Source: Plasmodiophora brassicae
Taxonomy: Eukaryota
Assembly: GCA_036867785.1 (NCBI GenBank)
Contig: CP145420.1
Location: forward strand, 1,116,001 to 1,180,000
Direction: 5' to 3'
Length of the DNA stretch: 64,000 nucleotides
Below, piece after piece: positions 14,360 to 64,000 of this stretch. A program made the position numbers and the translations under genes. The notes beneath the pieces were generated by a model. The model was not told the DNA's origin. It ran no database searches and saw nothing but the letters and a program-made list of their open reading frames with translations. The stretch's first letter is position 1. Every line of letters starts with the position of its first letter.

Positions 14360-14680
14360 TGGTTTATTTGTGTTTCGCGCTTTCACGCAGTCGCCTCGGT
14401 TTCGGGTCCGAGGACTGTATGGACAACTTGCAGCACGCAAGCAGCGTTCTCCGGCCTGGCAGTGCCGGCCTACCACCTTTTTTGGCATGTCTCCAGAAAT
14501 TTTATAAAGGATACGAAAATTCAACTAAGTGAACGTATCAACACGGGAAGGCCTGAACTTGTAGACCGGACCGCCCAACTAGGCCACGACAGCAGCTGCT
14601 CTCGTGGCCTAGTTGGGCGGTCCGGTCTACAAACTTCGTCCTCATTTTACAAACTTCCTCACAAGTCCGGTGGGCCTCCG
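14360..14680 (-). mobile_element. Degenerate LINE-like 3' end sharing its tail with the SINE
   Basis: Shares ggccggcacNgccaggccgg and cctcgg-N8-ccgagg...gcgcgaaaNacaaataaa with the SINE at 23712/29634. Upstream is a weak C..C..EDE-like remnant. Confidence 0.5.
14560..14631. mobile_element. Solo 72-bp palindromic terminus (TGTAGACCGG...CCGGTCTACA), TSD AACT
   Basis: Near-perfect palindrome flanked by aact at 14556-14559 and 14632-14635. Same unit as the ends of 49930-50251. Confidence 0.85.
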
Positions 14681-15522
14681 CAAACCGTAATATATATTAC
14701 GGTTTAGAGCGAACATTCCTAGACAGCCAGTTACGTTCCTAATCCAAATTATGTTCACGTTAGGAAATCGATTACGACTCCCGCGAGCGGCAGAGCGCGT
14801 CCTGAGTGCGGTTGGAGTTTCATTCTGCCTGTTCTGACTGCACGACTGGTGTTCGCCTGAACCTGAGCGACACAAACCACAAATGTTATGACACGACTGA
14901 CGACGACCAAACCTATCGACAACACGGAGTAGTCGACTGACGTCGACTCCGCGGCGTTTATTTGCGTCCGATATTGCGGACGCTGCAATCAGGGCCATGA
15001 GAGTTATAGTCTCGGTCACGCGGTTACCGCCTGCGGAGCCGCGGTCCTGCCTTGTTCGGATATTTCTTATGGGACTCAGAAATGGCCCGATCCAGGCCGC
15101 CGGTGCCATGGAGGTGCCGAGCGGGCTCCCAGGTGCGTTCCGGTGGGGGATAAGATAACCCTCCCAGTCCACGAGATAATGTAGCGAGTTGCGGATGTAG
15201 CGGGAATCCAATATGTGTGTACCACGTAAAAACGGCTCCTTCTCACCATTGTAGTCCGGGGTCCTATATTTAGCTCCTCATCACCTACGTCAGCATCAGC
15301 ATCCTCCAGATATTCACATGCGCCAGAGATTCATGTGTCGAGATATGCGGGGATCGAGAGCACGCGATCACGTGCGCCGCTGGTGGGAGAGCGGGGTACG
15401 GGATCGATGGTGGATAAACGGCATTCGTCTATTGTGTCACCCGAGGCTTGACGGAAGACACTATAGTGGCCACTACGTGTCGTACGTTGACTCTCCGTGA
15501 ACGACACCGACGACGACACGAC

Positions 15523-18500
15523 ATGGAGCTGACAAGCAGCAGCAGCAGCGGCGGCTCGACAAGCGCTACCATCGTTACGAACGCCGATGCGAGCATCCTG
15601 CCCAAGGCTAACAACCTTGACTCGACATCGATCCTGACGCTGCGCGAGGCGTACAACCGCTACGTCGCCATCTTCGAGGATCGGGAGGCGCAGCAGCCGC
15701 GGGGGCGTCGACTTCGTCCGCAAGGCATCCGGCTGTGCTTCACCGCCGTGCAGTTGAAGGCCATTGCCGAAAATCACCTGGACCTGGACGACGGCGCCGA
15801 GGCGTTGACTGACGAATTGCTGGACGGATGGATCCGAGACCAGGTCAACGCATTGCCCACCAGCCACGGGCTGCGTATTCAGGACATCGAGTCCAAGATC
15901 GCGGATGAGCTTTCGATGGATACCTCGATGTCGACCCTGCGAGATCAAATCGCGTCAATCCCGGACCAGCTGACGGCCATCCAGGACCGCCACGGTTGGA
16001 AGCTGAGCGAGACCGCCGGAGGACGCAAGGCCATGGGGCGCCTGATCGCTGACTCGCTCCAGCCCGGCTACCTCCGCGGTCACGTACAGGCATGGGTCAA
16101 GGAGGACAAGGCCGAACGTGAAGGCAATACCAGGGCGATCGTTCGCGAGGCGCAGGATTGGGCGAGGCACTTCGTCGCGATCGGACGCGCCCGCAACGCA
16201 TCGATCAAGCGTCCTCGGAAGAAGTGTTCCGAACTGCGACTCGCCGACAAGCAGAGCAAGCTGACTCCCGCTGCGACAACTTCAGGTGGACGCCGCGTAC
16301 CAGCCCATCGCCCTGTGCCCGCCAACCGGCAATCGGGCCCACATCCAGTGACCGTGAACGCTCCCAAGCGCAACCGCGAACCGACTGCGACAAGTGACAG
16401 CAGCCAGATGACGGGGACGACTGATGGCAAGCGCGACTTCAAATGCTGGCACTGCTCTGGGCCACATAAGATGTCGATGTGCCCAGAGAAGCCGACGAGA
16501 GAAAGGCGCAATGAGCTCGCACGTCATCATCGGCCCGCAGGCGGACATCATCCCGATGGACGTCGACCGATTAAAGTCGCCAAAACTCGCGCCTACACTG
16601 GGATCCAGCACGTGACACAGCAAGTAGAGATCGAGGGAAGGCGTATCCCTTATGTTCTAGACTCTGGCTGTGATGGGGGAAACCTCATACCTGAACACGT
16701 TGCGAATGAGTTGAAGGGCGCCACGTTCGAGGTTATCGAGCCCCGAGAAATCGCATCAGCCGACGACCAAGTCATTGCCGTCAGCACCCGCATCGTCACC
16801 GTTCCAGTGACGAAACTCGAAACCAAAGCTGGGAATCTCACCCTGTACCATGTTGCCTACTATGTCTGCGACGCTATTCCAGTCATCTTATTCGGCGACA
16901 CACTACTCTCTATGATCGGCATCAGTCCACGTCAGCAACTCGAGGACATGATCGCATCCGGCACCACCGAGTTTGATGCCAGACTATCTGGATGCGCCAT
17001 GTTCGATGTGGAGTCGTTCGACGCCGTCAGTGAAATCGTTGCAAGGATGGCGACGTTGAGCGGCGACACGTATCAGGCGCCACATGTACACGATGCGGCG
17101 GAACCTACCTCCAGTGATGTCGACTTAGGGCCGATCAACGTTCAAGAGATTGAGGCATCCCTCACCCGCCTGATACATCAAGCACGCCTCAACGGCATGT
17201 CTCGTCAAGGGGTTGCACGGCTACGACTCATCCTTCGACGACACGTCAACGAATTCCGCACACAGCTTGGTCAGGACGGTCCCGTCAACATCGAACCTAT
17301 GATTACCAAGCTTCAACCAGACGCCACGCCGTACCGATGCAGACCACGCTCCTACAACCCGAAGCAAAAGGAGTTCCTCGACGAGATGATCAAGATGCTG
17401 TTGGAAAACAATCTGGTCTACCTCAACATGAACTCCAGATGGGCGAGTCCCGTTCTTGTGGTCAAGAAACCGAACGGCAAGGGGTACCGCCTGTGCGTCG
17501 ATCTGCGCCAGGTGAACTCGCGTACGGTACCAACTGCTTGGCCGATGCCCAACATCGAGGCGGCTAGTCGGAAGCTGGCTGGCATGACCTGCTTCTTCAC
17601 GATCGATGCCCACAAGGGGTTCTGGCTCATGCCAATTGCGAAGGAATGCCAGGAGATCTTCTCGTTTATGACCGACGACGGCGTCTACACGCCTACCAGG
17701 AGCATTCAGGGCGCGACCAACTCTGCCTTGCAGTTCCAGGCGCGGATCGGGAAGATCTTCGACGACATGAAGGATCACCTCTTGATATGGATCGACGACC
17801 TGCTGGGATTCGCCAAAACGGAAGACATTCTACTGCATCAGCTTGCACGTGTCTTGGAGCGAGCGCGCGAACGCAACTTGAAGTTCAACCCGGACAAATG
17901 CGTCCTATTCGCTCGAGAGCTGAAGTGGTGTGGGCGCATCTACTCTCGTGATGGAATCCGACACGATCCCGAACGAATCGAGGCGCTGACCAGCATGCCG
18001 CGTCCTAACACTTTCAAAGAGCTACAGCAGTTCATCTGGGCGGCCAACTGGATGCGTACCAGTGTTCCCGGTTACGCGTACATCATCGCCCCGCTCCAGG
18101 AGCTCACGGACAAGGCGAACGAGGAGATGAAGAGAATCCAGTCTTCGTCACCTTCGTCGATTCGGTTACATGATCTTGGATGGACAGACCGGCACAGCAA
18201 GGCCTTCGAGGACATACGCTTTGCGCTGATCCAGCACGTCCAGCTCGCGTACCCGAAGTCTGATCACCAGACATGCTTGTTCACGGACGCCAGTGACCTA
18301 GCATGGGCTGCGGTCATTACCCAGATTCCGAGGGAGGATATCGACCTACCAGTTCATGAACAACGACACGAACCACTTGCTTTCTACGGCAAGCGGTTCT
18401 CTGGCGCTGAGTTGCGATGGTCAACACCGGAGAAGGAGGCAGCCGCCATCATCAAGGCGACTGAACGTGGTGACTTCCTTCTGCAGACGTCGCGTGAATT

Positions 18501-20328
18501 CCTCATGTTCTGCGACCACCGGAACCTCACGTTCATCTTCGCGAAGGACGCTGAGATGAAGAAGCACACCGCTCAGAAAATCGAGCGCTGGGCGCTACAT
18601 CTCCAAGGGTTTGATTACCGTACCAAGGAGATCTCCGGCACTGCCAACGTCTGGGCCGACCTTTTATCTCGATGGGGCGCAGGACGAATCGCACTGGCGT
18701 GCCGGGCAACGCGCATCTTGCAGATGGACGATCTTCGCGTAACGCCGATGACGCATCCCGATTTCCAATGGCCGACTGAGACCGAAATTCGCGAATCGCA
18801 AAGGCTATTGTCGCGTGAAGAGAAAATCGAGGACGGCGTGTTCTTCGATGATGACGCTCGTTTGTGGAAGTCGAAAACGAACGCCGTTCTGATCCCGATT
18901 CACAACGACTGCACCAGCTTGCGCCTACGCATCATGATCATTGGTCATTGTGCCAGTGCTGCTCATCGCGCGTACGACGTTACCAAGGAGGCAATCACAA
19001 CGCGATTCGCTTGGCCGGGCATGGACAAGGACATTCAGCAGATGTGCCAGCAGTGTCTTCATTGCATCACGACGCGGGGAGGAGCGAAGGTTCCGCGTCC
19101 GCTTGGAGAAGCGTTGCATGGCCACATTCCATTCGAGGTCCTGCACATGGATTACTTGTACGTCGAACCAGTTCGAGGAACCGATCATTCTTATAAGTAC
19201 ATCCTCGTGATGAAGGACGACTTCAGTGGTCTCGTCCGATTGATTCCATGCGCCGATGCGACCAGCCGAGTTGCGGCAGAGGCACTATTCCAATGGATTG
19301 CCGACTTCAAAACACCACAATATCTTGTCACCGATGGCGGATCTCACTTTACCGCCGAACTCATCAAGGAGCTGACCAGGCTGCGAGACGTCGAGCATCA
19401 TATAACGTTGGCGTACTGTCCATGGGCAAACGGGACTGTTGAACGCGCCAATCGCACTATCGTTGGCATCCTACGAAGCGTTCTGAGTGAGGGGCAGATC
19501 AGCACGCACAGCTGGCCCTACCTCTGCCCATTGGTGCAACACGCCATCAACCATTCGCCGAGCACACGCCTCGGAGGTTTCGCGCCGTTCACGGTCGTCA
19601 CCAAGTTGAAACCCGAGCACCCTCTGGACAACATCTGGGATCCGGCATGCAATCAGCTGCGGCCGATCTCTCCGGGATGGGTGGCGACGTACCTGTCAGC
19701 ACTGCAGACCGTTATGGACGAACTCCATAAGGTCGTCGATGAAGCCAGGGAGGCGAGGCACGCGTCCAATGTACGGCAACGCTCGCGACACGTGAGGAAG
19801 GCCCAATGCGAGTCGTTCATCCCGGGCGACTACGTCTTGAACGCGAAGCCCGTCCCCGGACCCGCACAGAAGTTGATTGCGCAGTGGCGCGGCCCCTACC
19901 GAGTTGTTCAACGCGTCAATGACCAGGTCTACGAACTCGAAGACCTGTTGACTGCACGGCGCTTCCAAGCACACACGCAACGCATCCGCCGCTATGCGGA
20001 CGCCGATCTCAACATCACCACCGAAATCAAGCAGCACCTTGAGCGGCTTGACCAGCAGTTCCACGTTGACGACCTTCTCGATTGTCGTATCGATCGCGAA
20101 ACTCAGGAGTTGCAGATCAAAGTCGCTTGGTCCGGCTTCGACCCATCTGAGGCTACTTGGGAGCCTGCAGCACTTATCACCGAAGATGTACCGCAGCTTG
20201 TGGAACAACTTATTCGGAAACTGGGCGATACTCATGCACACGTCGCTGCATTGAGGCAATTGATTCCGGCGCCGAAACGCTCTCGCACTCGGAATGCAAC
20301 ATCGCATCGAAATAAGCGACGATCTTAA
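15523..20328 (+). CDS. Gag-Pol polyprotein of Gypsy A (intact)
   Basis: Zn knuckle CWHCSGPHKMSMC, PR LDSG, RT WIDD, RNase H FTDAS, IN HHCC plus D-D-E (HMDY, VTDGG, VERAN), GPY, chromodomain VAWSGFDPSEATWEP. Confidence 0.95.
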   Translation: MELTSSSSSGGSTSATIVTNADASILPKANNLDSTSILTLREAYNRYVAIFEDREAQQPRGRRLRPQGIRLCFTAVQLKAIAENHLDLDDGAEALTDELLDGWIRDQVNALPTSHGLRIQDIESKIADELSMDTSMSTLRDQIASIPDQLTAIQDRHGWKLSETAGGRKAMGRLIADSLQPGYLRGHVQAWVKEDKAEREGNTRAIVREAQDWARHFVAIGRARNASIKRPRKKCSELRLADKQSKLTPAATTSGGRRVPAHRPVPANRQSGPHPVTVNAPKRNREPTATSDSSQMTGTTDGKRDFKCWHCSGPHKMSMCPEKPTRERRNELARHHRPAGGHHPDGRRPIKVAKTRAYTGIQHVTQQVEIEGRRIPYVLDSGCDGGNLIPEHVANELKGATFEVIEPREIASADDQVIAVSTRIVTVPVTKLETKAGNLTLYHVAYYVCDAIPVILFGDTLLSMIGISPRQQLEDMIASGTTEFDARLSGCAMFDVESFDAVSEIVARMATLSGDTYQAPHVHDAAEPTSSDVDLGPINVQEIEASLTRLIHQARLNGMSRQGVARLRLILRRHVNEFRTQLGQDGPVNIEPMITKLQPDATPYRCRPRSYNPKQKEFLDEMIKMLLENNLVYLNMNSRWASPVLVVKKPNGKGYRLCVDLRQVNSRTVPTAWPMPNIEAASRKLAGMTCFFTIDAHKGFWLMPIAKECQEIFSFMTDDGVYTPTRSIQGATNSALQFQARIGKIFDDMKDHLLIWIDDLLGFAKTEDILLHQLARVLERARERNLKFNPDKCVLFARELKWCGRIYSRDGIRHDPERIEALTSMPRPNTFKELQQFIWAANWMRTSVPGYAYIIAPLQELTDKANEEMKRIQSSSPSSIRLHDLGWTDRHSKAFEDIRFALIQHVQLAYPKSDHQTCLFTDASDLAWAAVITQIPREDIDLPVHEQRHEPLAFYGKRFSGAELRWSTPEKEAAAIIKATERGDFLLQTSREFLMFCDHRNLTFIFAKDAEMKKHTAQKIERWALHLQGFDYRTKEISGTANVWADLLSRWGAGRIALACRATRILQMDDLRVTPMTHPDFQWPTETEIRESQRLLSREEKIEDGVFFDDDARLWKSKTNAVLIPIHNDCTSLRLRIMIIGHCASAAHRAYDVTKEAITTRFAWPGMDKDIQQMCQQCLHCITTRGGAKVPRPLGEALHGHIPFEVLHMDYLYVEPVRGTDHSYKYILVMKDDFSGLVRLIPCADATSRVAAEALFQWIADFKTPQYLVTDGGSHFTAELIKELTRLRDVEHHITLAYCPWANGTVERANRTIVGILRSVLSEGQISTHSWPYLCPLVQHAINHSPSTRLGGFAPFTVVTKLKPEHPLDNIWDPACNQLRPISPGWVATYLSALQTVMDELHKVVDEAREARHASNVRQRSRHVRKAQCESFIPGDYVLNAKPVPGPAQKLIAQWRGPYRVVQRVNDQVYELEDLLTARRFQAHTQRIRRYADADLNITTEIKQHLERLDQQFHVDDLLDCRIDRETQELQIKVAWSGFDPSEATWEPAALITEDVPQLVEQLIRKLGDTHAHVAALRQLIPAPKRSRTRNATSHRNKRRS

Positions 20329-20453
20329 CCTGTACCATCACTCTGAATTAATCTCGATACCGTATCTGTTCGCGGGTGGACGATACGATGATGATCATGA
20401 TCATGGATTGGTCTCTCATGACAATCCAACCTGGTTGACGGCAACGTAACCAT

Positions 20454-20604
20454 GGTTCGACTTGGCTGGTTGCTTTGGGCACCACGGTCGGTTTGACTTG
20501 GCTGGTTGCTCGGTGCACCACGGTCAAAGTTCGGTTCGACTTGGCTGGTTGCCCACGGGACCACGGTCGATTTGACCTGGCTGGTTGCCATGTGCACCAC
20601 GGTC
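20454..20604 (+). repeat. Four ~36-bp tandem units in the 3' UTR of Gypsy A
   Basis: Approximate unit ggttYgacttggctggttgc-N6-caccacggtc, four copies. Confidence 0.85.
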
Positions 20605-21959
20605 AATGTTGTTCGATGGACTACGTGCTGTCCATCTCGCGAGGCATTCGGCAGCATCTATTAAGTTCCTCTTCACCGCAGGATTGACTCTGTCAGGGAG
20701 TACTGATGTCGAGGCTCCTGTTGCGCTGGGGGTCCACCCATGGGGGTCGGCCGCTGAGCTAGGTGAATGACACTTTCTAGATGTATATGGACCGGGCTCC
20801 ACCCATGGGGGTCGAGCGCACCATTGCTGATGTCGTCGTTTGCTACTTTGCACTCGGTCAAGGTACCTGAGGTTCTTTGATACGCTAAATCGTGTATGCA
20901 TAGGTGGAAGACGGTCTCGAAGAGGGTGTCCGTAAATGGATTTTCCACCGATTTGTCCCATGGGGTTACAAGGTGGTTTTTAGTGAGTAGTGGGTGTTCT
21001 GCACTCGAGTCTCACACTACCCTGCGTCTTCGTCCGTCATTCTCCTCTCGACTGCTCCTCTGACTCCGGTTCTGAGTTCGGGAAAAGGCAGTGTAGTCCG
21101 GGGTCCTATATTTAGCTCCTCATCACCTACGTCAGCATCAGCATCCTCCAGATATTCACATGCGCCAGAGATTCATGTGTCGAGATATGCGGGGATCGAG
21201 AGCACGCGATCACGTGCGCCGCTGGTGGGAGAGCGGGGTACGGGATCGATGGTGGATAAACGGCATTCGTCTATTGTGTCACCCGAGGCTTGACGGAAGA
21301 CACTATACCATCGATGACTAAGGGAGGAGGAGGCGGTTGCGTGTGTCCCGAAATTACGTTTGGAACGTGCGGTTCGAGCAGGGACACATGAAACACGTCA
21401 TGGATCTTCATGGCCGGCGTCAATTCGAGTTGAACGGCAACGGGGTTGACGATATGGCGGATGCGAAACGGTCCCATAAGGGGAAAGTCAAGCTTCGCTC
21501 ACGGTCGGTGCGTGGACAGTCCCTGGCGCCGCGACACGACGAAATCCCCGACGCGGTAAAGACGGTGTGGCATCCGACGTGCGTCCGCCGTCCGTTTCAT
21601 GTTGGCGATGGCCTTTTGGAGACGCGCGTGTAGCACCTGGCGGATTTGGTCCATGTGCGGGGCACGTTCCTCAGCTGACGGATTGACATGACCGGCCGCA
21701 CGGGTCGTAACTCGTATGCACGCGGATGGAATCCGTAGTTGACGTAGAACGGAGACGTGCCCGACGGAATGCTTGGCGTTGTTGTACGCGAATTCTGCCA
21801 ACGGTAAGAATCCTAGCCAGTCATTCTGCAGGTAGTTGATGAAACACCGTAGGTATTGCTCCAGGACCTGATTAACGCGCTCAGTCTGACCGTCGGACTC
21901 GGGATGTCGCGAGGAAGGCAGGTTTCGCTGCATACCTAGGCTGTGCAACTGGAATGGCA

Positions 21960-24199: not shown

Positions 24200-24256
24200 G
24201 GTTGGCCTGATCGAATTGCGCGGGCATTTGTCACGGCATTCGCCTGGAGGGGCGCG

Positions 24257-29148: not shown

Positions 29149-29459
29149 ACATCACCGACGGGAGTTCGAGCCTCCTCGAAGTCCGCCGTGGACGGAGAGT
29201 TTTGGGGAGGATGGTAGATAGTACGGACGCGCCAGGCACGAGAGCAGGTCTGCGAGTCGTCTACACGGGTAGGAGGCGGACATCGCTCGATCGTCGGGGG
29301 GGTACGAGCTTCCCCGGTGAGATGTTTTGTAGACCGGACCGCCCAACTAGGCCACGGGAGCAGCTGCTCTCGCTCTCGTGGCCTAGTTGGCGGTCCGGTC
29401 TACAAAACATCTCACCGACGGGAGTTCGAGCCTCCTCGAAGTCCGCCGTGGACGGAGAG
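29149..29459. mobile_element. Tandem fragment of the palindrome-ended element (internal - palindrome - internal)
   Basis: The internal sequence of 50000-50181 is followed by one palindrome (~29328-29404), then the internal sequence starts again. Confidence 0.85.
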
Positions 29460-36054: not shown

Positions 36055-36894
36055 CGCGTCCTTCTTTGAAACCTTCCCCGAAAGGATGTTCAAGAGATCT
36101 CTGTGACGTCCTAACGGTGATGGTTTATCGAACCGTGTGCGTAGTCGTCTGTGTCCTCGACCTGCAGCTCCCACGGACGCCGTGCCGACGCCGTGCGGAC
36201 TCCGTGCATGTCCGTCATTCTTAGGGCGGCCAGCCGGATCACAGCTATTCTTGTCTTATAGCTTGGAGCCGGCACACCTTGCATCACCGCCAGCGTTGAT
36301 GGCGGCGATTGGGTATTTCGACTCAAGATGAGCCGCCATCTCGAGAATTTTGTCGTAGTCTCTGAAGTTGTAGAAGAAGAGCGCCTCGGAGAGCGCAGGG
36401 TTCATCGAGAGGCGGAACGTTTCCGCCAAGCGGGCCGGATTGAGTCTGTACAATGGGTCAAGTCGTTGAAGGTCCTTGTACAAGCGTTGGAAGGCCAGTG
36501 CTGTAGTCAGTCTCGAGCTCTCGAGCCAATATCCCAATGAGTTTTATCATCCATCCCATCCACGGCGTCGGCCATGCCATCACAGTGGAGCTAAATCCGT
36601 GCAGGCCCCCTTTCCTCAGGACAGCAGGACCCCGTTCTCCTCAGGACAGCAGCATCTTGAGGTCGGGCACGAAATATAGAGCCCCGCTCTACACTGCCTT
36701 TCTCCGAACTCGTGCCCGGAACCAGCAACATCATCATCGTGCCCGGCGAAGATAGAGAAGACGGCGAAGGGTAGTGTGAGACTCGGAATCATCCAATACT
36801 CACTAAAACCCACCTTGTAACCCCATGGGAAAAATCGGTGGAAAATCCATTTACGGACACCCTTGCCACCGCCACCACCATGAACTAGCCGAGA

Positions 36895-47100: not shown

Positions 47101-49849
47101 CTGGCGCAACTGAGCGCGGCGCGCGTGTTCACGAAGATTGACCTTCGTGGCGCTTACAACCAGATCCGTATCCGTGACGGTGACGAATGGAAAACCGCGT
47201 TCCGCACGCCATACGGCCTGTTCGAGTACCTGGTGATGCCTTTCGGGCTGTCCAACGGCCCGGCAGCATTTCAAGGCTTTATGAACGATCTATTCCGGGA
47301 TTATGTTGACGTATTCGTTGTCGTCTATCTCGACGACATCCTCGTGTTCTCTCGCGACGCACAGGAGCACGAACGGCACGTTAAACTCGTCCTCGACCGC
47401 CTACGACAGGCCAATCTGAGCGCGAAGCTTTCGAAGTGCTCCTTCGACGCTCGGGAAGTCGAGTTCCTGGGCTACGTCATCTCCGCTGCAGGAGTTCGCC
47501 TCGATCAGTCCCGTGTGGATACCATATTGGCGTGGGAACCACCCAAGGACGCGAACGGCGTCCGCGTCTTCCTGGGCTTCGCGAATTTCTACCGCAAATT
47601 CATTCCTCACTTCGGCGAGATTGCTCTACCGTTAACCAATCTTACTCGTGAAGACGTCGCCTTCCGCTGGACTGATCGGGAACAGGACGCCTTCCGCTCC
47701 TTACAAGCCGCCTTTACGTCGGCCCCAGTCCTGGCCCACTTTCACCCCGATCGGCCCTGCGAGGTGGAGACCGACGCGTCGGACTTCGCTATTGCTATGG
47801 TCCTCTCCCAGCGGGACGCGGACGATGAGCTGCGACCACTCGCGTTCTACTCTCGTAAGTTGACGAAGGAGGAGCTCAACTACAAGATTCACGATAAGGA
47901 GATGTTAGCGATTGTTCAGTCGTTTGAGAAGTGGCGCCAGTTCCTCGATTCCGCGCAGCACCAGACCCTGGTCCACAGTGATCACCGGAACCTGGATTAC
48001 TTCCTCAGCACGCAGAAACTCTCCCGGCGGCAAGCGCGGTGGTCCGAGCTGTTGGGCGAATTCGATTTTCGTATCCAACACCGCCCTGGACGACTTCACG
48101 GAAAGGCGGACGCCCTGTCCCGTCGACCAGAGTACCAGCCCTCGCGCGAGGAAGAAGAGATGGTCCAACGCTCCCTCCGCATGCTGTCTCCGGACCATTT
48201 TCTTCCCGGCCCGCTCGGGCATACCATCAGCGCCTTGCAGCCGGAGAACAGCTCGGTACCCTTGATTGAGCGCATTCGGCGGCAGCAGGCGACGGATGCC
48301 TATGTCGCGAAGATGAAGGCACTCGTCGACACTCCGAAAGGACGCCGCTTCCGATTAATCGACGGCCTGCTCTACAGGGATCACCGTCTCATCGTTGTCG
48401 GGGACGATTGCAAGCTCGAGATCCTTCAGATCTTGCATGACTCGCCCGCCGCTGGTCATCTCGGTTTGTGGAAGACTTTGCGCTTAGTCCAACGCGAGTT
48501 CTGGTGGTGCCAGCTCCGGTCGTATGTCAAGGACTACGTCGCGTCCTGTGACACCTGCCGGCGATGTAAGATACCACGTCACAAGCCCGCTGGCCTTCTT
48601 ACACCGTTACCACTTCCGACAGCGCTCTGGTCGTCCATTTCGATGGACTTCATCGTCAAACTTCCACGATCCATCGGGTTCGATTCAATACTGGTGGTTG
48701 TTGATCGTTTCTCTAAGATGGCGCACTTCATCCCATGTAACGAGACGACGACGGCGGCCCAGCTGGCGGACCTGTTCCTCTGCAACATCTTCCGTTTGCA
48801 CGGGCTGCCGACCGACATCGTCTCCGACAGGGGACCCCAGTTCATATCGAAGGTTTGGAAGCAACTGCTGAACCGGCTCGGTGTCCAGCGGAATCTGTCT
48901 TCGGCGCGTCACCCAGAATCGGATGGCCAAACGGAGCGGGTCAACCAGACCTCGAGCAGTACCTACGAACGTACGTAAATTTCCAGCAGGATGATTGGGC
49001 CTCTTGGTTGCCCATCGCCGAATTCGCGTACAATGACGCCTGTCACTCATCGACGGGGATGTCCCCGTTCTTCGCCAATTACAGGTATCACCCGGCGTTC
49101 CACGATCTACGATCGCGAACCTCCTCATCTTCGAATCCGTCAGCGGATGAGCGCGCGGAGTTCCTGCACACGCTACGCACAGTGCTGAAGCAGAACCTGT
49201 CCAACGCGATCCACGCGATGAAGCGCTTCGCCGATGCTCTTCGCAGCCCGCACCCGTCCTACAAGCCCGGCGATCTGGTAATGCTACGGAAGGGGGCCTT
49301 ACGAACGGGCCGACCTTGTGACAAACTCGACGTCCGTATGTTAGGCCCATATCCCGTAGCGAAAGTCATCAACGCCGTTGCGTACGAGCTCGAGTTGCCG
49401 CCGACCTGTCGGATCCACAATGTGTTCCATGCGTCCCTTCTGGAACCGTACGTCGCCAGCGTCATACCCGGCCGCCACCAGCCGCCACCAGATCCTATCG
49501 TGGTCGATGGGGAGGCGGAACCCCTCTACCTAGTCAACAACATCCTGGACTCAAGGTACCGACGGGGGCGTCTTCAGTATTTGATCGATTGGGAGGGCTA
49601 CCCGCCGTCCGAGAGGACATGGGAACCGGCCGGAACGCTTTGTGGCACGGGAGGGATGGATCAAGCAATAGCAGAGTTCCACACTCTCCACCCGGCGAAA
49701 CCTGGACCCGCACAACGGCGCCGGAAAACGTCCCGTTAACAGGACAGTCGTAGTGTCAGGCGTCGACATAGCAGGTCGGCGCCGGAATAAAGTCCGTGCG
49801 AGCGGGGACCGACGGCAGTGGGTCAACGCGTCGTCGTATAGTCGTGACA
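44183..49849 (+). mobile_element. Gypsy C: Ty3/Tf2-like chromovirus, frameshifted
   Basis: 96-bp LTRs at 44183-44278 and 49754-49849 (3 mismatches), TSD CTGAG. CFRCREPAHMANQC, LIDCGA, YLDD, ETDAS, SDRGPQF, QYLIDWEGY. Confidence 0.95.
45212..45281 (+). promoter_or_regulatory. -1 ribosomal frameshift signal (G GGA AAT plus predicted pseudoknot)
   Basis: Heptamer in the gag frame, 6-nt spacer, stem 45225-45234/45246-45255. Loop cgggttc is complementary to gaacccg at 45275-45281. Confidence 0.75.
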
Positions 49850-49929
49850 CTGAGCATGAGCTTTCGGCCATTTCGACGCAATGGCAGGTAGAAGTTCGTC
49901 GACAACTTTACGCCGAAAGACATCTTTGG

Positions 49930-50251
49930 TGTAGACCGGACCGCCCACTAGGCCACGAGAGCAGCTGCTCTCGTGGCCTAGTGGGCGGTCCGGTCTACAA
50001 AACATCTCACCGACGGGAGTTCGAGCCTCCTCGAAGTCCGCCGTGGACGGAGAGTTTTGGGGAGGATGGTAGATAGTACGGACGCGCCAGGCACGAGAGC
50101 AGGTCTGCGAGTCGTCTACACGGGTAGGCGGCGGACATCGCTCGATCGTCGGGGGGCTCGAGCTTCCCCGGTGAGATGTTTTGTAGACCGGACCGCCCAC
50201 TAGGCCACGAGAGCAGCTGCTCTCGTGGCCTAGTGGGCGGTCCGGTCTACA
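49930..50251. mobile_element. 322-bp non-coding element with perfect 70-bp palindromes at both ends, TSD TTGG
   Basis: Palindromes at 49930-49999 and 50182-50251. Excision restores the mariner frame (SITKDVF). Confidence 0.92.
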
Positions 50252-52199
50252 TTGGTTATGGACTTAACGCACTTCGTTTCAACAGTACCAGATGGCCGGT
50301 TCTTGCTGCTTCGGCGCGCGGTTTGCTGCTCAACGAAAGGGAAGCATCCGATCTTCCCGTCAAACCAAGTGCCGTTAACATAATCCAGACGGGGACGAGC
50401 AACCGCCACTAGGAACATCGCATGCGTGAGATAGTTAATGTTGGTCGAAGTTCGACATGGATCATCCTCCCCCGGGGCCATGTAGTAGCTCGAACTCGTC
50501 TCCGTCATATTGAACTGCTTTTCGTCGGCGTGGATGAGATTGGACATGTCACAGAAGTGTGGTGTTCCGAGCAACGTGCTGGTTGCATCGACGAAACGTA
50601 CGCAATAGAGCTGCCGCAGCAGTTTGTGAAACGGCGTCAGATGCGGTTTGAGCCGAACGCTGTGATGCACGATGCACCCTTCTTTAACGCGGCGGCTGAC
50701 AGTGGAGACGGGCATGGCGAGTGCGCCGGCAAGCGCTCTTATACTCTTTCGACGACTGTGCGGGATTGCCATCAGCACACCAGGATTGACCAGATTTTTG
50801 GCTCGTCCAGCATGGCCACGCTTCCTCGACTTTACGTTGGCCATTCGCGCGCCGGTATCGAGAGACTCCACCGCTCGAGCCCAGATACGACTCACCGTCG
50901 CGACTGAGACTTCGAAAACCCGGACTGCCTCGCTCATGCGGCCGTGGTCTAGCCGCCACTCTCCGTCGCAGTACTGTAAGAGATATTCGTACACCTCCTG
51001 TCTCTGGTCGTTGGTCAGATTGGGTCTGCGGTTGGTCCCCTGGACACGACGTTCAGGTGCTGGAGCTTCGGGGAACGACATGCAGCCTCCACGCAGTTCG
51101 AAGCGCCCGCCAAAAAAAAATCAAATTTGCAAAAGAAGTGGTACGGAGGAAGTAGATCGTAGTGACTGAAACAGGACCGGATGGCCTTCATTCTCGTAAG
51201 TTGCGCAGCCAGACATTCTTTCGGGAACTGGTTGGCCAAGGCTTTGACGTTGACGTGTGGCCGCTCATTTTCACGGGAGGATGCGGGGATGACCGTTATT
51301 ACGCTGATGACTGCTTTGCAGTAGATGGATAATTGAAGGGGTTAGTGGAACGAGCGGTCGTGTAATATCTGGAATGTTCAGTGGAGAATACCGTATAGAC
51401 GTGCAAGCCTCATGCTAGGTGGCAGTCCTATTGTATATAATGATGGGCCGTGAGTGAGTAGGAATACCATTCCACATGTATCTACTTTAGCGGGACCAGG
51501 GTATGACCGAACCGTCAGAATTCGTCGACCGTAAAAGTCACCGCCAAATCGGACATTTGCGTAGACAAAAGCTGGCACCAAAGTGCGCAGAGTGTCCACG
51601 TAGTGTCCGCCGTGAAATGTACGGACACTTGCCAAGTGTACGTGGGACACTATCTTTGGCGATGAAGTACTCGGCCTGTATTGCGAGTCTTGTGAAGAAC
51701 ACAAAATCATCTTCTTATGCACGTCTAGATTTACATTATGACCTGCCGATGATAAAAATTCAATAAGACAAGGGTGAGAAAAACGCTGACAAACAACCCG
51801 GCGCATCGCGAGTGTACCGAAGTGTACAGCCGCAGCACTTGATATAAAAATTGATATTACTGTTTGTCAAGTATCCCAATTAAAAGAGGAGAGCTCTACA
51901 TTATGGTATTCTGTTCAAGCATAGTCGACTTCTCAGTCAGCCAGTTTACTCTAGTGAACTCGAGGGAGTGCAGTGACACGTGATTCTGTAGTGTCCGCCG
52001 TGAAATGTCCGCGAGTGTCCATGTAACTACAGAGACACTTGCGCCCCGTCGAAGTCCGGACTGGCCAAATGGATCCTGGGCGTACTTGTGACTGGTCAGC
52101 AATCAGTCAATCACTCCAACCTCAACAGGCTGCGTTGGATGATGGGCTTTGCAGCAGAGAACCAGTTCCGGCGTAGTTATGTTTCAGAATACTCTCTTT

Positions 52200-56990: not shown

Positions 56991-59900
56991 TGTAGTCCCG
57001 TGTCTGCAGACTCTTGACGGCACGTAATGACACAGAAACAGAATGACGTTTATCAATCGCATCGTCACGACGACGTCAGCCTCGCCACGTCATCGTGCTA
57101 AATCGGGGCACGCAGTTTGTCTAAATATAGTCCAGGACCGTCAGGTCAAGTGGCAGCACGTTGATGTAGGGAACGAGACGCTATAAATAGAGCCCCGCTC
57201 TACACTGCCTTTCTCCAAACTCGTGACCGGAATCATCGTGAGCACGTAGTACGTAGATGGTGAAGTTGACAGAAGGTAGTGTGAGACTCGGAATCACCCA
57301 ATACTCACTAAAAACCACCTTGTAACCCCAAGGGAAAAATCGGTGGAAAATCCATTTACGGACACCCTTGCCACCAAACACCATCGGTGCAACGAAGACA
57401 TCAGCGATGGTGCGCTCGACCCACATAGGTGGAGCCCGGTCCATATACATCTGAAAAGTATCATTCACCTAACTCAGCGGCCGACCCACATAGGTGGACC
57501 CCCAGCGCAACAGAGTCTCGATAGCCAGTACGCCCTGACCAGAGTCAACTGCGGTGAAGAGGAACTTAACAGACGCTGCCGACTGCCTCGTGATCGTAAC
57601 GTATCAATGAGGTCACCGTCATGACCCATCGAGGAACGTATTGGCCTCTCATAGGAGTGCCATAAACCATAGTCGCATGACGTCCATGACAACCAGGTTA
57701 ACTGATCCCATGACGTCCATGAAAATCAGTGAAGCGGGTCCCAACGTTTTGAGTACCCGGTCCTCAGCTATAGAAGACCATGATCCAGATCATCTTCGTA
57801 ACGTTCACCATGAACCGATACGGTGGCGTCGTCCGTGATTAGGTCCCGACGCAACGTAGGAAGCGTATACGATTGTTGATTCCTACGAACCCAACAACCG
57901 TAAATCATGGATACCTTGCACCCATACCTAATGTTTTGTTCGTCGCTTCCGTTGCGCTTGTCGCTTTCACGTATTCGTACGCTTTTGCATCGGCGCCATT
58001 TCTCGTAACGCCTCCACTTGCGGATGATAATCTCCGAGACGTCGTATAAGCTTCTGGACTAGTTCGGGAACATCTTCGTAGATGACACGAGCAGGTTCCC
58101 ACGTTGCTTCCGCCTCGTCGAATCCAGACCATAGAACCTTGATCTGAAGTTCTTGCGTTTCTCGATCCACTCGACAGTCCAGTAGATCGTCCACCAACAG
58201 CTGGTTATCAGCGTGCTGGAGTTGACGCTTGAGATCGACGGTCATGTTCAGATCGGCGTCAGCGTATCGTCGAATTCGTTGTGAGTGTGCGTTGAAGTGT
58301 CGTTCAGTGAGCGGGTCTTCCAGCTCGTACACTTGATCGTTGATCATCTTGACGACTCGATATGGGCCTCGCCACTGGGCTATCAACTTCTGAGCAGGAC
58401 CCGGTACCGGTTTTGCGTTGAGCACGTAGTCGCCAACGATGAACGATTCGTAGTGGCTCTTGTTCAGGCGTCGTCGCTGTTGTCGCACATTAGACGCATG
58501 CCGTTGTGCCTTTGCTTCATCAACGGCCTTGTGAATCTCGTCGAGGACCTCTTGTAACGTCGGCACATACTTGGCGAATCCTTCAGGTGGTATGCGTCGC
58601 CATTGTCTCTCCTTCGGATCCCAGATCTGGTCGAGCGGGCTTTCTGGCGAACGCCCCGTGACGACCGTGATCGGCGCGTAACCGTTGAGACGTCGACTTG
58701 GCGTGTGATTAATGACGTGCTGAACGACTGGACACAAGTACGGCCAGTTGTGCGTCGTAATCTGGGCCTCGTTCAGGATCGAACGCATGACGTTGAGCAC
58801 AGTGCGGTTTGCGCGCTCCACCGTGCCATTGGCCCATGGACAGTATGCAGTCGTGATGTGATGCTGAACATCTCGTAACCTGGTAAGCTCCTCCATGATT
58901 TCCGCCGTGAAGTGTGAACCACCGTCCGTGACCAGGTACTCAGGCGTCGCGAAATCAGCAATCCACTGATTCAGAGCTTCCGTAGCAACACGACTTGTCG
59001 CCTCAGCTGATGGGATCAGGCGTACGTAGCCGCTGAAGTCGTCCTTCAAGAGCAGGATGTACGTGTACTGGTGGTCCGTGCCCCTGACTGGCTCCACGTA
59101 GAGGTAATCCATGGTGAGCACGTCGAACGGCTTGTGGCCATGCAACGCTTCACCAAGTGGTCTTGGAACTTTCTTACCACCGCGTGTCGTAATGCAATGC
59201 AGACATTGCTGGCACATCGCTTGAATGTCCTGACTGATCTTCTTCCAGGCGAAGCGCTCCATGATCATCTGCTTGGTTACGTCGTACGCACGATGACCAG
59301 CGCTCGCGCAATGACCAATAATCAGGATCCGTAGTCGTAGACTCTTGCAGTCCAGATGGCATGGGATGAGAACAGCTTTGTCCTCGTTCTTCCACAAACG
59401 ATCAGCTTCGTCGAAGTAGACGCCATTGTCAATCTTCTCGTCCCGTGACAGTACTCGCTGTGCATCGCGAATCTCCGTCTCCGTCGGCCAGCTAAACTCA
59501 GGATGCTGTCGAGGAGTGACTCGCAAGTCGTCAAGCTCCATGATGCGTGCTGCTCGACATGACAAGGCGATACGACCGGCGCCCCATCTTGTCAGCAGGT
59601 CAGCCCAGACGTTGTCCTCTCCGGCGATGCTCTTCGTCTGGTAGCGGAACCCCTGCAGGTGCAACGCCCAACGTTCCAGCTTCTGGGCGGTGTGCTTCTT
59701 CATTTCGGAGTCCTGACTGAAAATGAACGTCAGATTGCGATGATCGGTATAGAGTAGGAACTCTCGTGATGTCTGAAGCAGGAAGTCCCCGCGTTCCGTG
59801 GCGTAGATGATCGCGGCCGCCTCCTTCTCGGGCGTAGACCATCGTAGTTCTGAACCAGCGAAGCGTTTGCCGTAGAACGCGAGAGGTTCGTGACGTTGAT

Positions 59901-62900
59901 CGCAAACAGGCAGGTCGATATCCTCCAACGGGATCTGCGTGATGACAGCTGCCCATGCCGTTTCACTTGCGTCGGTGAATAGGCATGTCTGGTAGTTCGA
60001 CTTCGGGTAGGCCAGCTGAACGTGTTGAATCAGGGCGAACCGTATGTCCGTAAATGACTTGTTGTGCTGGTCACTCCAACCCAACGCGTCAAGCGTGATC
60101 GATGATGGCGTTGCGGATCGAATACGCTTCAACTCGTCATTGGCCCGATCGATAATGTCTTGTAGTGGACGGATGATACAGGGATAGCCGGGTATGTGAG
60201 TACGCATCCAGTTGGCCGCCCATAGGAACTGCTGCAACTCCTTGACAGTTCGCGGACGCGACATGGTCGTAAGCGCTTCGATACGTTCTGGGTCGTGTCG
60301 TACACCATCACGTGAGTAGATTCGCCCGCACCACTTCAGTTCACGAGCGAATAACGTGCACTTGCCCGGATTCAGTTTCACATTGCGTTCACGACATCTC
60401 TCAAGAACCCGCGTCAGCTGATGTAGCAGGTCGTCCTCTGACTTTGCGAATCCAAGGAGGTCGTCGATCCATATCAGCAGATTGTCCTTCATGTCGTCGA
60501 AGATCGCTGCCATCCGAGCATGAAATTGAATTGCCGAGTTCATGCCTCCTTGAATACTCCTCGTAGGCGTATAGACAGCGTCGTCCGTCATGAAGCTGAA
60601 CATTTCTTGGCATTCCTTTGCCAAAGGCATTAGCCAGAAGCCTTTGAACGCGTCGATCGTGAAGAAGCATGTCATGCCAGCAAGCTTGCGCGTGACCGCC
60701 TCCACGTTAGGCATCGGCCAGGCGGTGGGGACACACCGCGCGTTGACCTGGCGTAGGTCGACACATAGACGGTAGCCGTCGCCCTTCGGTTTCTTTACGA
60801 CTAAGACGGGACTTGCCCAGCGAGAGTTCATGTTCATGTAGATGAGACCGTTCTCCTTGAGCATTTTGACCATATCGTCAAGGAATTCCTTCTGCTTCGG
60901 GTTGTAGAACCGCGGCTTGCACCGGTAAGGCGTAACATCCGGCTTCAGCTGCGTTACCATCGGTTCGACATCGACAGGCTTATCTTGCCCCAGCCGCGTA
61001 CGGAATTCGTTCAGGTGTCGTCGCAATATCAGACGTAGTCGACTAACTCCATGTCGGGACATTCCGTTGAGGCGTGCTTGATGCACCATTCGATTGCACG
61101 ACGTTTCGATCTCGTGCACGTTGATTGGTCCCAGGTCGACTTCACTTGAAGATGGCTCAGCGGAGTCTGGTTCCTGAGGGGCTTGAAAGTAGTCGCTTCC
61201 AAGCGTTGCCATTCTAGCAGCAATGCGCCGCACAGTCTCGATTGAATCGACGTCGACTGCCGCACATCCTGACAGCGTGTCCATCTCGGTACATCCTGAT
61301 GCGATGATGTTCTCCAGCTGCTTATGCGGGTTGATGCCAAGCGCAGATAGAAGATTGTCACCGAACAGGATCACTGGAATCGTGTCGCAGACGTAGTAGG
61401 TCACATGGTACAGCTTAAGGTTGCCAACCTCGGTCTCCAGAGTCGTGACTGGAACTTGTACCATTCTCGTGATCGTCCCGATGACCTTGCCCTCCGCGGA
61501 AGAGATTTCTCGTGGCTGGACGTCGCGAAATGTGGCATCATTCAACTGGTCAGCGATATGGCCAGGTATGATATTTCCACCACGACAGCCCGAATCCAGT
61601 TCGTAGGGAACGCGCATGCCTTCCAGCACTACCCGTTGCAAATCGTCCTCAGTCCCAGTGTACCCGTCAGTCTTCTGGACCTTTATAGGGCGATTGGCGC
61701 GGACAAGCTCAATGCAGCGCTCCTTCGATGGTTTCGTTGGGCAGACTCGCAACCCGTGGTCGCCGCCGCAATTCCAGCAAGTGATCTTGCCGGCGTTCTT
61801 CTTCTCAGGGTCGTCGTCCCTCCGTCGCTTTGTCGCATTCCCGTTCGCTTGTGCTTCAGGATCTCGAGCCTCCACTTTCGTAGCGTTCGGCTGCGTGCTG
61901 AGAACCGTAGCGGGCTTCGGACGGGTCGGTCGGTTCGAGGGTGGCGGGCGATGCTGCGCGACGCGTCGACCGCCAGCTGTCACCGTCACCTGGTATTTGT
62001 GACTCTTGTCACTAAGGCGTAGTTCGGCACAGGTCTTGTTCGACACTCCCGCGATCTGCGCGGAGCCTTGCACGAAGACCTTGTATCGGACCCATTCCAA
62101 GGCGTGCTTCATGATGCCCTTCAAGTCACCCTCCCGGTTGGTCTTATCGTCTTTCACCCATTGCCGCACATGGTCCCGTAATGGCCATGGCTGAAGTGTG
62201 TCCACCAACAATCGGCCAAGTGCTCGGCGTCCACCGGTCGTGTCTCGTAGGTGAAGCCATCCGCGCTTCCACTGGATCTCCGTCATCCGATCCAAGATGG
62301 ACTGCACTTGGTCCTTCAACGTAGGGAGGTTCACGTCCATCGACAGCTCCTTGGACATCTTGACTTCGATGTCCTGCGTCGTGAGCCCATGGCTGGCCGG
62401 AAGACTCTTGATCTGGCCGTCGATCCACCCTTCGAGTTCCTCATCAGTCAGCATGTCGACGCTGCGAAGGAAAAGGTGGTTCAGTGCAATGGACGTCAGC
62501 TGTGGCGTCGTGAAGCAGAAGCGGATTGCTTGCGGCTTGATCCTAGCTTCCTCAGGACGTTGTCCTTCGCGGTCAGTCACGACAGCACAGTAGCGATCAT
62601 ACCGCTCCTTCAACTTCAGGATCGACGTAGAATCCAGCTTCGTCGCGTGCGGAAGAATGCTGAGGTTTGCCGAGCTCTTGAAACCGCCGACGTTCGCGCC
62701 TTGCGACTGAGATGCCATGACGTTGTAAACAGTTGCGACGCTCCGCCGCCCGTTAACGTGTAGCGTGTACGTGTGGTTGGACGTATACGTAGGGGTGGGA
62801 CGTAGTGCGCACTGTAGTCCCGTGTCTGCAGACTCTTGACGGCACGTAATGACACAGAAACAGAATGACGTTTATCAATCGCATCGTCACGACGACGTCA

Positions 62901-63026
62901 GCCTCGCCACGTCATCGTGCTAAATCGGGGCACGCAGTTTGTCTAAATATAGTCCAGGACCGTCAGGTCAAGTGGCAGCACGTTGATGTAGGGAACGAGA
63001 CGCTATAAATAGAGCCCCGCTCTACA
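56991..63026 (-). mobile_element. Gypsy D: full-length chromodomain LTR retrotransposon
   Basis: 214-bp LTRs at 56991-57204 and 62813-63026 (identical by eye), TSD CTGG, PPT ggagaaaggcag. Confidence 0.97.
57967..62718 (-). CDS. Gag-Pol polyprotein of Gypsy D (intact, 1583 aa)
   Basis: CWNCGGDHGLRVC, LDSG, WIDD, FTDAS, HHCC/DDE, GPY and chromodomain. Confidence 0.95.
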   Translation of the reverse strand: MASQSQGANVGGFKSSANLSILPHATKLDSTSILKLKERYDRYCAVVTDREGQRPEEARIKPQAIRFCFTTPQLTSIALNHLFLRSVDMLTDEELEGWIDGQIKSLPASHGLTTQDIEVKMSKELSMDVNLPTLKDQVQSILDRMTEIQWKRGWLHLRDTTGGRRALGRLLVDTLQPWPLRDHVRQWVKDDKTNREGDLKGIMKHALEWVRYKVFVQGSAQIAGVSNKTCAELRLSDKSHKYQVTVTAGGRRVAQHRPPPSNRPTRPKPATVLSTQPNATKVEARDPEAQANGNATKRRRDDDPEKKNAGKITCWNCGGDHGLRVCPTKPSKERCIELVRANRPIKVQKTDGYTGTEDDLQRVVLEGMRVPYELDSGCRGGNIIPGHIADQLNDATFRDVQPREISSAEGKVIGTITRMVQVPVTTLETEVGNLKLYHVTYYVCDTIPVILFGDNLLSALGINPHKQLENIIASGCTEMDTLSGCAAVDVDSIETVRRIAARMATLGSDYFQAPQEPDSAEPSSSEVDLGPINVHEIETSCNRMVHQARLNGMSRHGVSRLRLILRRHLNEFRTRLGQDKPVDVEPMVTQLKPDVTPYRCKPRFYNPKQKEFLDDMVKMLKENGLIYMNMNSRWASPVLVVKKPKGDGYRLCVDLRQVNARCVPTAWPMPNVEAVTRKLAGMTCFFTIDAFKGFWLMPLAKECQEMFSFMTDDAVYTPTRSIQGGMNSAIQFHARMAAIFDDMKDNLLIWIDDLLGFAKSEDDLLHQLTRVLERCRERNVKLNPGKCTLFARELKWCGRIYSRDGVRHDPERIEALTTMSRPRTVKELQQFLWAANWMRTHIPGYPCIIRPLQDIIDRANDELKRIRSATPSSITLDALGWSDQHNKSFTDIRFALIQHVQLAYPKSNYQTCLFTDASETAWAAVITQIPLEDIDLPVCDQRHEPLAFYGKRFAGSELRWSTPEKEAAAIIYATERGDFLLQTSREFLLYTDHRNLTFIFSQDSEMKKHTAQKLERWALHLQGFRYQTKSIAGEDNVWADLLTRWGAGRIALSCRAARIMELDDLRVTPRQHPEFSWPTETEIRDAQRVLSRDEKIDNGVYFDEADRLWKNEDKAVLIPCHLDCKSLRLRILIIGHCASAGHRAYDVTKQMIMERFAWKKISQDIQAMCQQCLHCITTRGGKKVPRPLGEALHGHKPFDVLTMDYLYVEPVRGTDHQYTYILLLKDDFSGYVRLIPSAEATSRVATEALNQWIADFATPEYLVTDGGSHFTAEIMEELTRLRDVQHHITTAYCPWANGTVERANRTVLNVMRSILNEAQITTHNWPYLCPVVQHVINHTPSRRLNGYAPITVVTGRSPESPLDQIWDPKERQWRRIPPEGFAKYVPTLQEVLDEIHKAVDEAKAQRHASNVRQQRRRLNKSHYESFIVGDYVLNAKPVPGPAQKLIAQWRGPYRVVKMINDQVYELEDPLTERHFNAHSQRIRRYADADLNMTVDLKRQLQHADNQLLVDDLLDCRVDRETQELQIKVLWSGFDEAEATWEPARVIYEDVPELVQKLIRRLGDYHPQVEALREMAPMQKRTNT

Positions 63027-64000
63027 CTGGTCGCATCGCACTGTCATGTAGAGCAACGCGCATCATGCAGATGGACGATTTGCGAGTCACTCCTCGGCAA
63101 CATCCTGAATTCAGCTGGCCGACCGAAAAGGAGATCCGCGATTCGCAACGCTTTCTGTCACGAGAGGAGAAGATCGAGGACGGGGTATACTTCGATGAAG
63201 CTGATCGTCTGTGGAAGAACGAGAGCAAAGCCGTTCTTATTCCTTGTCATCAAGACTGCAAGAGTCTACGCCTTCGAATCCTGGTCATTGGCCATTGCGC
63301 AAGAGCTGGTCATCGTGCGTCGGAAGTAACCAAGCAGATGATCACGGAGCGCTTCTTCTGGACCAAGATCAATCAGGACATTGAAGCGATGTGTCAGCAA
63401 TGCCTGCATTGCATCACGACACGCGGTGGTAAGAAAGTTCCTCGGCCGCTCGGTGAAGCATTACACGGTCACCAGCCGTTCGACGTACTCACGATGGACT
63501 ATCTCTATGTGGAGCCTGTCAGGGGCGCGGACCACAAGTACAAGTATATCCTGCTCTTGAAGGACGACTTCAGTGGTTATGTTCGTCTGATTCCATCAGC
63601 TGAAGCGACAAGTCGTGTTGCTGCGGAAGCTCTGAATCAGTGGATAGCCGATTTCGCGACGCCCGAGTACCTGGTCACGGACGGTGGTTCACACTTCACT
63701 GCAGAAGTCATGGAGGAGCTTACCCGGCTACGAGGTGTTCAGCATCACATCACAACGGCATATTGTCCGTGGGCTAACGGCACGGTGGAACGCGCGAACG
63801 GCACGGTGCTCAACGTCATGCGATCAGTCCTGAACGAGGCCCAGATTGGCACGCACAACTGGCCGTACTTATGTCCTGTTGTTCAGCATGTCATCAACCA
63901 CACACCAAGTCGACGACTCAACGGCTACGCGCCATTCACGGTTATCACGGGACGTTCACCGGAAAGCCCGCTTGACCAGATCTGGGACCCAGTAGAAAGA

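Follow-up and report, generated by a model that had tools for sequence, protein, structure and literature searches.

A parvovirus or AAV ITR combines a terminal palindrome with a short non-palindromic D segment that recurs in inverted orientation at the other end, and concatemers of such genomes give internal-palindrome-internal junctions. A TRIM in the classical definition carries a PBS beside its 5' repeat and a PPT beside its 3' repeat. Passages of PMC2836005 give Ginger1 transposons TIRs of 40-270 bp, a 4-bp TSD (CCGG in 75% of cases, CCGT/ACGG in 24%) and TGTNR ends like those of Gypsy LTRs, and give Ginger2 transposons TIRs of 50-180 bp, a 4-bp TSD, TGTNR ends and an RTATAY target; non-autonomous Ginger copies with the same ends are also mentioned there. 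Excerpts of a second source list TSDs of 4 bp (Ginger1), 4-5 bp (Ginger2) and 3-6 bp (LTR elements), and TGT...ACA ends for IS481EU (PMC10045372). In the available part of PMC4717578, TRIMs are recognised operationally by a length of less than 1,500 bp, by complete and solo copies with different TSDs and by the absence of retrotransposon proteins; they have TSDs of 4-6 bp, sizes down to 292 bp and commonly form tandem arrays. Their solo-repeat and tandem L3I2-type forms are put down to unequal crossing over in the same text (PMC4717578; also, in the parts available, PMC6934838 and PMC4528315).

The window analysed here, 64,000 nt of Plasmodiophora brassicae (assembly GCA_036867785.1, contig CP145420.1, positions 1,116,001 to 1,180,000), contains a small element whose termini are perfect palindromes of 70 nt, termed P, and which can be read in the terms of each of these systems. 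The full copy (49930-50251) spans 322 bp and consists of P, a 182-nt internal part and a second P. Each P equals its own reverse complement, and the left (49930-49999) and right (50182-50251) copies are identical; because P is palindromic, the ends are simultaneously LTR-like direct repeats and inverted repeats, as the initial annotation had recognised. The same annotation correctly described a P-internal-P arrangement between two copies of TTGG and an inversion running inward past P. The latter amounts to 13 nt and results in a terminal inverted repeat of 83 nt at 100% identity (49930-50012 / 50169-50181 plus P), beyond which about 22 further bases are imperfectly inverted. The ends of the element read TGTAG...CTACA (Table 1).

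Table 1. Features of the P element, its relatives in the window, the interrupted gene and the LTR elements used for comparison.
Feature	Position	Strand	Description or evidence
Left TSD TTGG	49926..49929	.	sequence; empty-site joint in 4/4 runs skips 326 = 322+4
Left P, perfect palindrome, TGTAGACCGG...CCGGTCTACA	49930..49999	.	equals own reverse complement; identical to right P
13-nt inward inverted-repeat extension, AAACATCTCACCG	50000..50012	+	repeat search
P*, decayed third P, centre of internal region	50074..50137 (about)	+	local alignment
Inverted partner of 13-nt extension, CGGTGAGATGTTT	50169..50181	+	repeat search
Right P, identical to left P	50182..50251	.	repeat search
Right TSD TTGG	50252..50255	.	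sequence; empty-site joint
Solo P, 72-nt subtype, mirrored +A/+T, one arm mismatch	14560..14631	.	AACT at 14556-14559 and 14632-14635
Truncated tandem fragment: internal 2-182, 77-nt P variant (29328-29404), internal 1-55	29149..29459	+	alignment
Interrupted Tc1/mariner-like transposase fragment	49850..51120	-	99% identical to Plasmodiophora brassicae protein; also truncated at 49849/49850 by Gypsy
Gypsy A, comparator	15250..21307	+	216-bp LTRs TGTAGTCCGGGG...CACTATA; TSD CCAT; PBS TGGCCACTACG; PPT GGGAAAAGGCAG
Second Gypsy, comparator	56991..63029	-	LTRs TGTAGAGCGGGG...GGGACTACA; TSD CCAG in element orientation
Third LTR element	30975-36276		LTR ends TGTGACG...GGCACA; TSD CCTT
G5, Gypsy chromovirus	44183-49849		96-bp LTRs TGTCA...TGACA, 96.9% identical; 5-bp TSD CTGAG
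Copia	23716-30118		485-bp LTRs; GGTTGGCCTGATC both sides of 5' LTR, CAGGTCAGGGCGA both sides of 3' LTR

At the centre of the internal region lies P*, which shares an 11-nt exact stretch, CACGAGAGCAG, with P and aligns to it locally with a score of 50, compared to 28.4 +/- 3.9 for shuffled sequences (maximum 45; 0 of 500 reach 50). Judged by this alignment, the 322-bp form is best described as a probable composite, P - x - P* - y - P, with two intact ends and one decayed centre. The internal decayed copy and the division of P into subtypes of 70 and 72 nt are newly found parts of the anatomy. As single-stranded DNA, the element folds with an energy of -154.5 kcal/mol versus -62.7 +/- 4.3 for shuffles (z = -21.5), and alignment with its reverse complement gives 75% identity across 339 columns, a likeness due to P and the approximately 35 nt beside it. 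The idea that the whole element is one palindrome was dropped, the internal core being no more self-complementary than shuffles (240 of 300 core shuffles reach its score). Within the window, the 28-nt core of P has 3 matches (0.00 expected) and TGTAGWCCGG has 10 (0.20 expected), eight of which are P ends and two the starts of the Gypsy A LTRs; chance does not account for these matches.

The element is non-coding: its only ORFs are stop-to-stop frames of 73-146 aa that run through the palindromes, none with a family match. The internal part has no similarity to any LTR element in the window, and a search of the element against Rfam finds no known RNA or ribozyme; everything listed falls below threshold and merely resembles hairpins, namely miRNA precursors and a single bacterial sRNA at 15-34 bits versus gathering thresholds of 60-98. 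Next to P there is no TGG-type PBS in either orientation, host tRNA genes lying outside this comparison. A self-priming site is also lacking in the 25 nt beside P, which match the complement of P over at most 5 nt (4-5), as opposed to 9 nt in G5. In that chromovirus, whose integrase bears SH3_Tf2-1 and chromo domains and for which a TGG-type PBS was sought and not found, the 9 nt directly after the 5' LTR (TTGACCGAC) are the complement of a stretch within the LTR, which suggests that G5 may prime by itself in a Tf1-like manner. Where a PPT would be expected, the P element has 7-8 purines in a 15-nt stretch that ends in TGTTT, compared with 10-12 of 15 in four of four LTR elements of the window. 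The ORF scan and these comparisons with local LTR elements thus agree with the initial annotation that neither PBS nor PPT nor a convincing ORF is present.

A closer tie to Gypsy A had been proposed from the start of P and from the 4-bp TSDs of both. TGTAG and a 4-bp TSD are indeed common to the two, but the likeness goes little further: in the 7 bases that follow TGTAG, P agrees with either Gypsy LTR start at 4, which is near chance, and the idea that P mimics the end of the Gypsy A LTR specifically was rejected on this 4/7 agreement beyond a TGTAG that is class-wide. A CCNN pattern among the TSDs, also proposed, holds for the LTR elements with a 4-bp TSD, all three of which display the CC../..GG target pattern (p about 0.004), but for only one of the two P insertions (p about 0.29), and one contig flank beyond the element begins GATA.

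Two other forms occur in the window, and both had been identified correctly, down to the AACT on either side of the solo P and the internal-P-internal junction. The solo P (14560-14631) is a single mismatch away from a perfect palindrome. The tandem fragment (29149-29459) lies in the 3' untranslated part of the Copia element, between the pol ORF and the 3' LTR; its ends are abrupt, and a target duplication was looked for there and not found. The same Copia carries a duplication of 24615-24740, the start of its ORF, at 28504-28629, after pol, and its flank repeats together with this internal duplication may reflect recombination or template switching. Since the 3' region that holds the 29.3-kb fragment also holds the duplicated 5' piece, capture of the fragment by RT template switching is possible. 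Immediately upstream of the Copia, 23232-23623 consists of repeated GACGTCTAAAACGTT-like motifs.

The 70- and 72-nt subtypes of P are distinguished by an extra A in the left arm and, at the mirror position of the right arm, an extra T. This mirrored indel is found in the solo P and in both arms of the 29.3-kb copy, and is variant in public-run contigs at all four mirrored places; the remaining differences between P copies are unmirrored. As a single compensated change (n=1), it is suggestive of arm-to-arm homogenisation.

The full copy interrupts a Tc1/mariner-like gene, whose minus-strand ORF (50230-51120) shares 99% identity with a protein assigned by name to Plasmodiophora brassicae. Once the element and one TTGG are taken out, this ORF continues across the site and lengthens from 296 to 323 aa (stop to stop). 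The claim that removal restores a mariner ORF therefore stands as far as the reading frame is concerned, but the gene remains cut about 80 bp further on, at the Gypsy LTR end at 49849, and the ORF is no more than Tc1/mariner-like: Pfam reports DUF7769 and weak HTH matches only, its relatives carry DUF7769 and HTH_Tnp_Tc3_2, with one named 'Tc1-like transposase DDE', and it has no match among PDB sequences.

Contigs of four public runs, from four studies, aligned on 49700-50500 (801 nt) number 142, 123, 149 and 44, and the stretch or part of it occurs in 20 of the 24 listed runs (10 studies). An empty-site joint, 49925 to 50252, is present in each of the four runs and skips 326 bases, that is, the element and one TTGG; a 570-nt contig of run X6, for example, covers 49850-49925 and 50252-50500. 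Other contigs depart exactly at the ends of the element, before 49930 (three in X8) and after 50251 (three in X3 and one in X6), into flanks that are mutually unlike (agreement 0.54-0.61). With an exact empty site and unlike flanks at both ends, the family is mobile and multi-copy; the condition named at the outset as fatal, that only the three copies of the window exist, fails, as contigs in several runs leave the element ends into unlike flanks.

Between 4 and 56 contigs per run fit two places of the 801-nt stretch, and run X17 has low cover over the left half of the left P, probably an effect of palindrome assembly. In all three DNA runs, the summed contig word depth, which is not equivalent to copy number, is higher in P bins than in internal bins and far higher in both than in the flanks; it is thus likely that there are more P copies than two per internal part. 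Outside these runs, a 27-nt P pattern, which fits the 72-nt subtype alone, has no match in metagenome or prokaryote genome contigs; an 18-nt end pattern has none in viral contigs and matches 44 metagenome loci, each of them over at most 20 nt, as expected by chance. A literature search of partial coverage, with Repbase outside it, found nothing on this element or on small non-coding elements, MITE, TRIM or Ginger in Plasmodiophora.

The surrounding window is a block of nested LTR elements, in agreement with the dominance of Gypsy and Copia in the 11-14% repeat fraction of P. brassicae that is given in the available part of a 2026 bioRxiv preprint. The repeat classes named in the consulted text of this population-genomics preprint, which reports 55 complete assemblies, are Gypsy, Copia, DNA transposons, LINEs and Helitrons only, and 'MITE', 'palindrom' and 'inverted repeat' do not occur in that text. 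Among the 25 long ORFs of the window, the sole clear host gene is a kinesin motor domain ORF (8671-9906, minus strand; Pfam E = 3.5e-42), which a protein atlas places no finer than eukaryote. The ORF at 52872-53507 (minus strand) has a weak Plant_tran (PIF/Harbinger-type) match (E = 6.5e-07), pointing to a second DNA transposon class in the block. Near the 3' end of Gypsy A, at 20454-20610, a unit is repeated three times at a spacing of 36-43 nt. A near-perfect palindrome of about 1.37 kb, whose ends are not TGTAG, occupies 2265-3634; its inner arms (2649-2950 / 2970-3271), 302 nt long and separated by 19 nt, show 100% complementarity, its outer arms (2265-2641 / 3258-3634) are 96% complementary, and it could be either a true inverted duplication or a long-read fold-back assembly artefact.

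With a probability of roughly 55%, the P element is a non-autonomous, MITE-like DNA element whose P modules are mobilised in trans by an integrase-type DDE enzyme. P would then be the functional end module, consisting of two 35-bp terminal inverted repeats placed back to back; a trans-acting enzyme of the retroviral-integrase DDE type would attach each ...CTACA-3' end to a target phosphate, the two phosphates lying 4 bp from one another, and this 4-bp stagger would produce the 4-bp duplication. A Ginger-like transposase may provide this activity; a Gypsy integrase is a less simple candidate. P being palindromic, its copies at the two ends are direct repeats as well, and ordinary unequal recombination between them could yield both a solo P with its duplication retained and P-internal-P-internal arrays, as in LTR elements; a solo P, bearing both ends, might also move alone. 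Of the earlier proposal of a non-autonomous parasite of the Gypsy integrase or of a Ginger-type transposase, the non-autonomous character is retained and the TGTAG ends and 4-bp TSD fit the DDE class, but the link to one Gypsy family is weak.

Several observations argue for such a MITE-like element, from which we infer both the class of the enzyme and movement at the DNA level. Its two insertions have distinct, true 4-bp duplications (TTGG and AACT), and duplications of this kind, differing in sequence, point to a DDE enzyme, not an HUH nickase. In its perfect 83-nt TIR, TGTAG ends and 4-bp TSD, the element agrees with the values cited above for Ginger1 and Ginger2, and also with the TSD lengths tabulated for integrase-type enzymes in PMC10045372. 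The exact empty site in four of four runs, together with the unlike flanks, counts in the same direction, as do the lack of a tRNA-type or self-priming PBS and of a PPT, and the decayed P inside the element; the excess of P-bin over internal-bin depth is consistent with extra solo P copies. On the other side of the balance, no autonomous transposon with P ends and no Ginger-type transposase is present in the window, where all rve/H2C2 ORFs fall in LTR elements or their fragments. TTGG and AACT lie outside the target preferences that those passages report for Ginger1 and Ginger2, no link between Ginger and Plasmodiophora was found in the literature covered, and no footprint of excision was seen. 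The mirrored A/T indel requires arm-to-arm correction or copying, which goes beyond plain cut-and-paste, and the possible template-switch capture of the 29.3-kb fragment likewise weighs against the MITE-like reading.

An alternative in which the P element is a miniature LTR retroelement of the TRIM type, transcribed, converted to DNA by reverse transcription inside Gypsy particles and then integrated by the Gypsy integrase, is unlikely. P would then be a 70-bp LTR, the solo P a solo LTR and the 29.3-kb piece a remnant of a tandemly arrayed TRIM. All three operational features set out in the available part of PMC4717578 are found here, and the 4-bp TSD, the 322-bp size and the tandem form are in line with the TSDs of 4-6 bp, the lower size of 292 bp and the common arrays described in it. 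Local Gypsy families start with TGTAG and make 4-bp TSDs, one local Gypsy has LTRs of just 96 bp, and the P pair is identical, like the LTRs of a young insertion. In a probable RNA run, the type of which is guessed, internal-part contigs are far deeper in word depth, a poor measure, than the flanks; this depth would suit an RNA-based life cycle and to that extent counts, weakly, for a TRIM and against a MITE-like element. The same depth and the Copia-embedded fragment are weak hints that RNA of the element exists and may enter retroelement particles. These points face the lack of any PBS, whether tRNA-type or self-priming, and of a PPT; the 13+22-nt inverted extension and the central P*, which have no role in an LTR life cycle; a palindromic LTR, in which distinct U3, R and U5 are not obvious; and the mirrored indel of P, which LTR regeneration leaves unexplained.

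Quite improbable, too, is the proposal that P elements parasitise nothing but the integration step, in which case palindromic DNAs with Gypsy-type ends would be made by fold-back and then inserted by the integrase of an LTR retrotransposon. If true, this would be a third lifestyle between MITEs, which depend on cut-and-paste, and TRIMs, which depend on full retrotransposition, and it would explain both the fit to the two definitions and the indel mirrored in the arms of P.

The underlying route of fold-back, hairpin-primed synthesis, whereby one P arm is copied from the other and the palindromic-ended DNA is subsequently inserted by an integrase, is very improbable in its own right; either self-primed strong-stop cDNA or rolling-hairpin replication could serve as its model. 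P with its 13-nt extension is reminiscent of a palindromic ITR with a D-like segment, and the order P-x-P*-y-P, in which the end-proximal parts of x and y are inverted relative to each other, is one that a dimer around a second palindrome might show. The A/T indel is mirrored in both arms, in the window and among contig variants, and a Gypsy of the self-priming type seems to be present in the same genome. However, neither a Rep/HUH gene nor a hairpin-ended or circular molecule was observed, and no Rep-like family is found among the 25 long ORFs of the window. The mirrored change is a single one (n=1), close inverted repeats can be homogenised by ordinary repair, the self-complementarity of the internal core is not significant (240/300, as above), and a parent LTR with an end matching a P arm is absent from the window.

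That the element is SINE-like and derived from a tRNA, with an RNA polymerase III promoter made of a box A within the right P arm and a box B further inside, has next to no probability: TGGCCTAGTGG (49974-49984) fits the box A consensus, a perfect T-arm (GGGAG-TTCGAGC-CTCCT) is found at 50015-50031 at the canonical 48-nt spacing from 49967, and TTTT is seen by eye at 50055-50058, but a tRNA or SINE origin was largely rejected, as ARAGORN finds nothing by default and is at noise under relaxed settings (59 matches in the window versus 43-57 in 5 shuffles), Rfam has no tRNA match, the putative 95-nt RNA is no more stably folded than shuffled sequence (z = -0.65), and a fixed 4-bp TSD with exact TIR ends is not a SINE feature.

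In summary, the P element is a real multi-copy curiosity and not a new kind of biology. It nonetheless comes from Rhizaria, whose mobile elements are scarcely described, and constitutes a warning case for annotation, in that one pipeline would call it a MITE and another a TRIM or LTR element. If the family is active, as the identical P pair and the co-occurrence of filled and empty sites support, it could provide inexpensive insertion markers with which to type isolates of this crop pathogen, and could show whether integrase-type enzymes are exploitable without reverse transcription.

Among known systems, the solo P resembles MiHsmar1, an approximately 80-bp palindromic MITE of the human Hsmar1 mariner made of two TIRs and little else; MiHsmar1 is of the Tc1/mariner type, with a TA duplication, and is not known to serve as the end module of a larger composite. 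The parvoviral junction architecture that had been suggested for the 29.3-kb copy is there as described, with a palindrome and a 13-nt inward extension, but neither hairpin priming nor a parvovirus-like mechanism has direct support: in contrast to parvovirus and AAV DNA, the P element is chromosomal, 322 bp long and non-coding, is flanked by a true target duplication and has no evident Rep/HUH gene or nick site.

Like the TRIMs of the consulted literature, the P element is small and protein-less, has terminal direct repeats and a 4-bp TSD, and exists in solo and tandem forms. Unlike TRIMs, it has neither PBS nor PPT, its terminal repeats are also inverted, with the inversion extending 13 nt beyond the 'LTR', and a decayed third repeat lies inside. 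It had been thought to fit neither the MITE nor the TRIM definition; rather, because P is palindromic, it formally fits the operational definition of each, being small and non-coding with TIR, TSD and copies at different sites as a MITE is, and departs from the classical definition of TRIMs in PBS and PPT. With respect to Ginger1 and Ginger2, its duplications, TTGG and AACT (n=2), along with the GATA flank, differ from CCGG/CCGT and RTATAY, although they are too few for a logo; moreover, the available passages of PMC2836005 and PMC10045372 describe no self-palindromy of Ginger TIRs, as opposed to those of P, and make no mention of oomycetes or Phytophthora. What the P element shares with the Ginger transposons of these passages is an 83-bp TIR, a 4-bp TSD and TGTAG...CTACA ends that fit TGTNR...YNACA.
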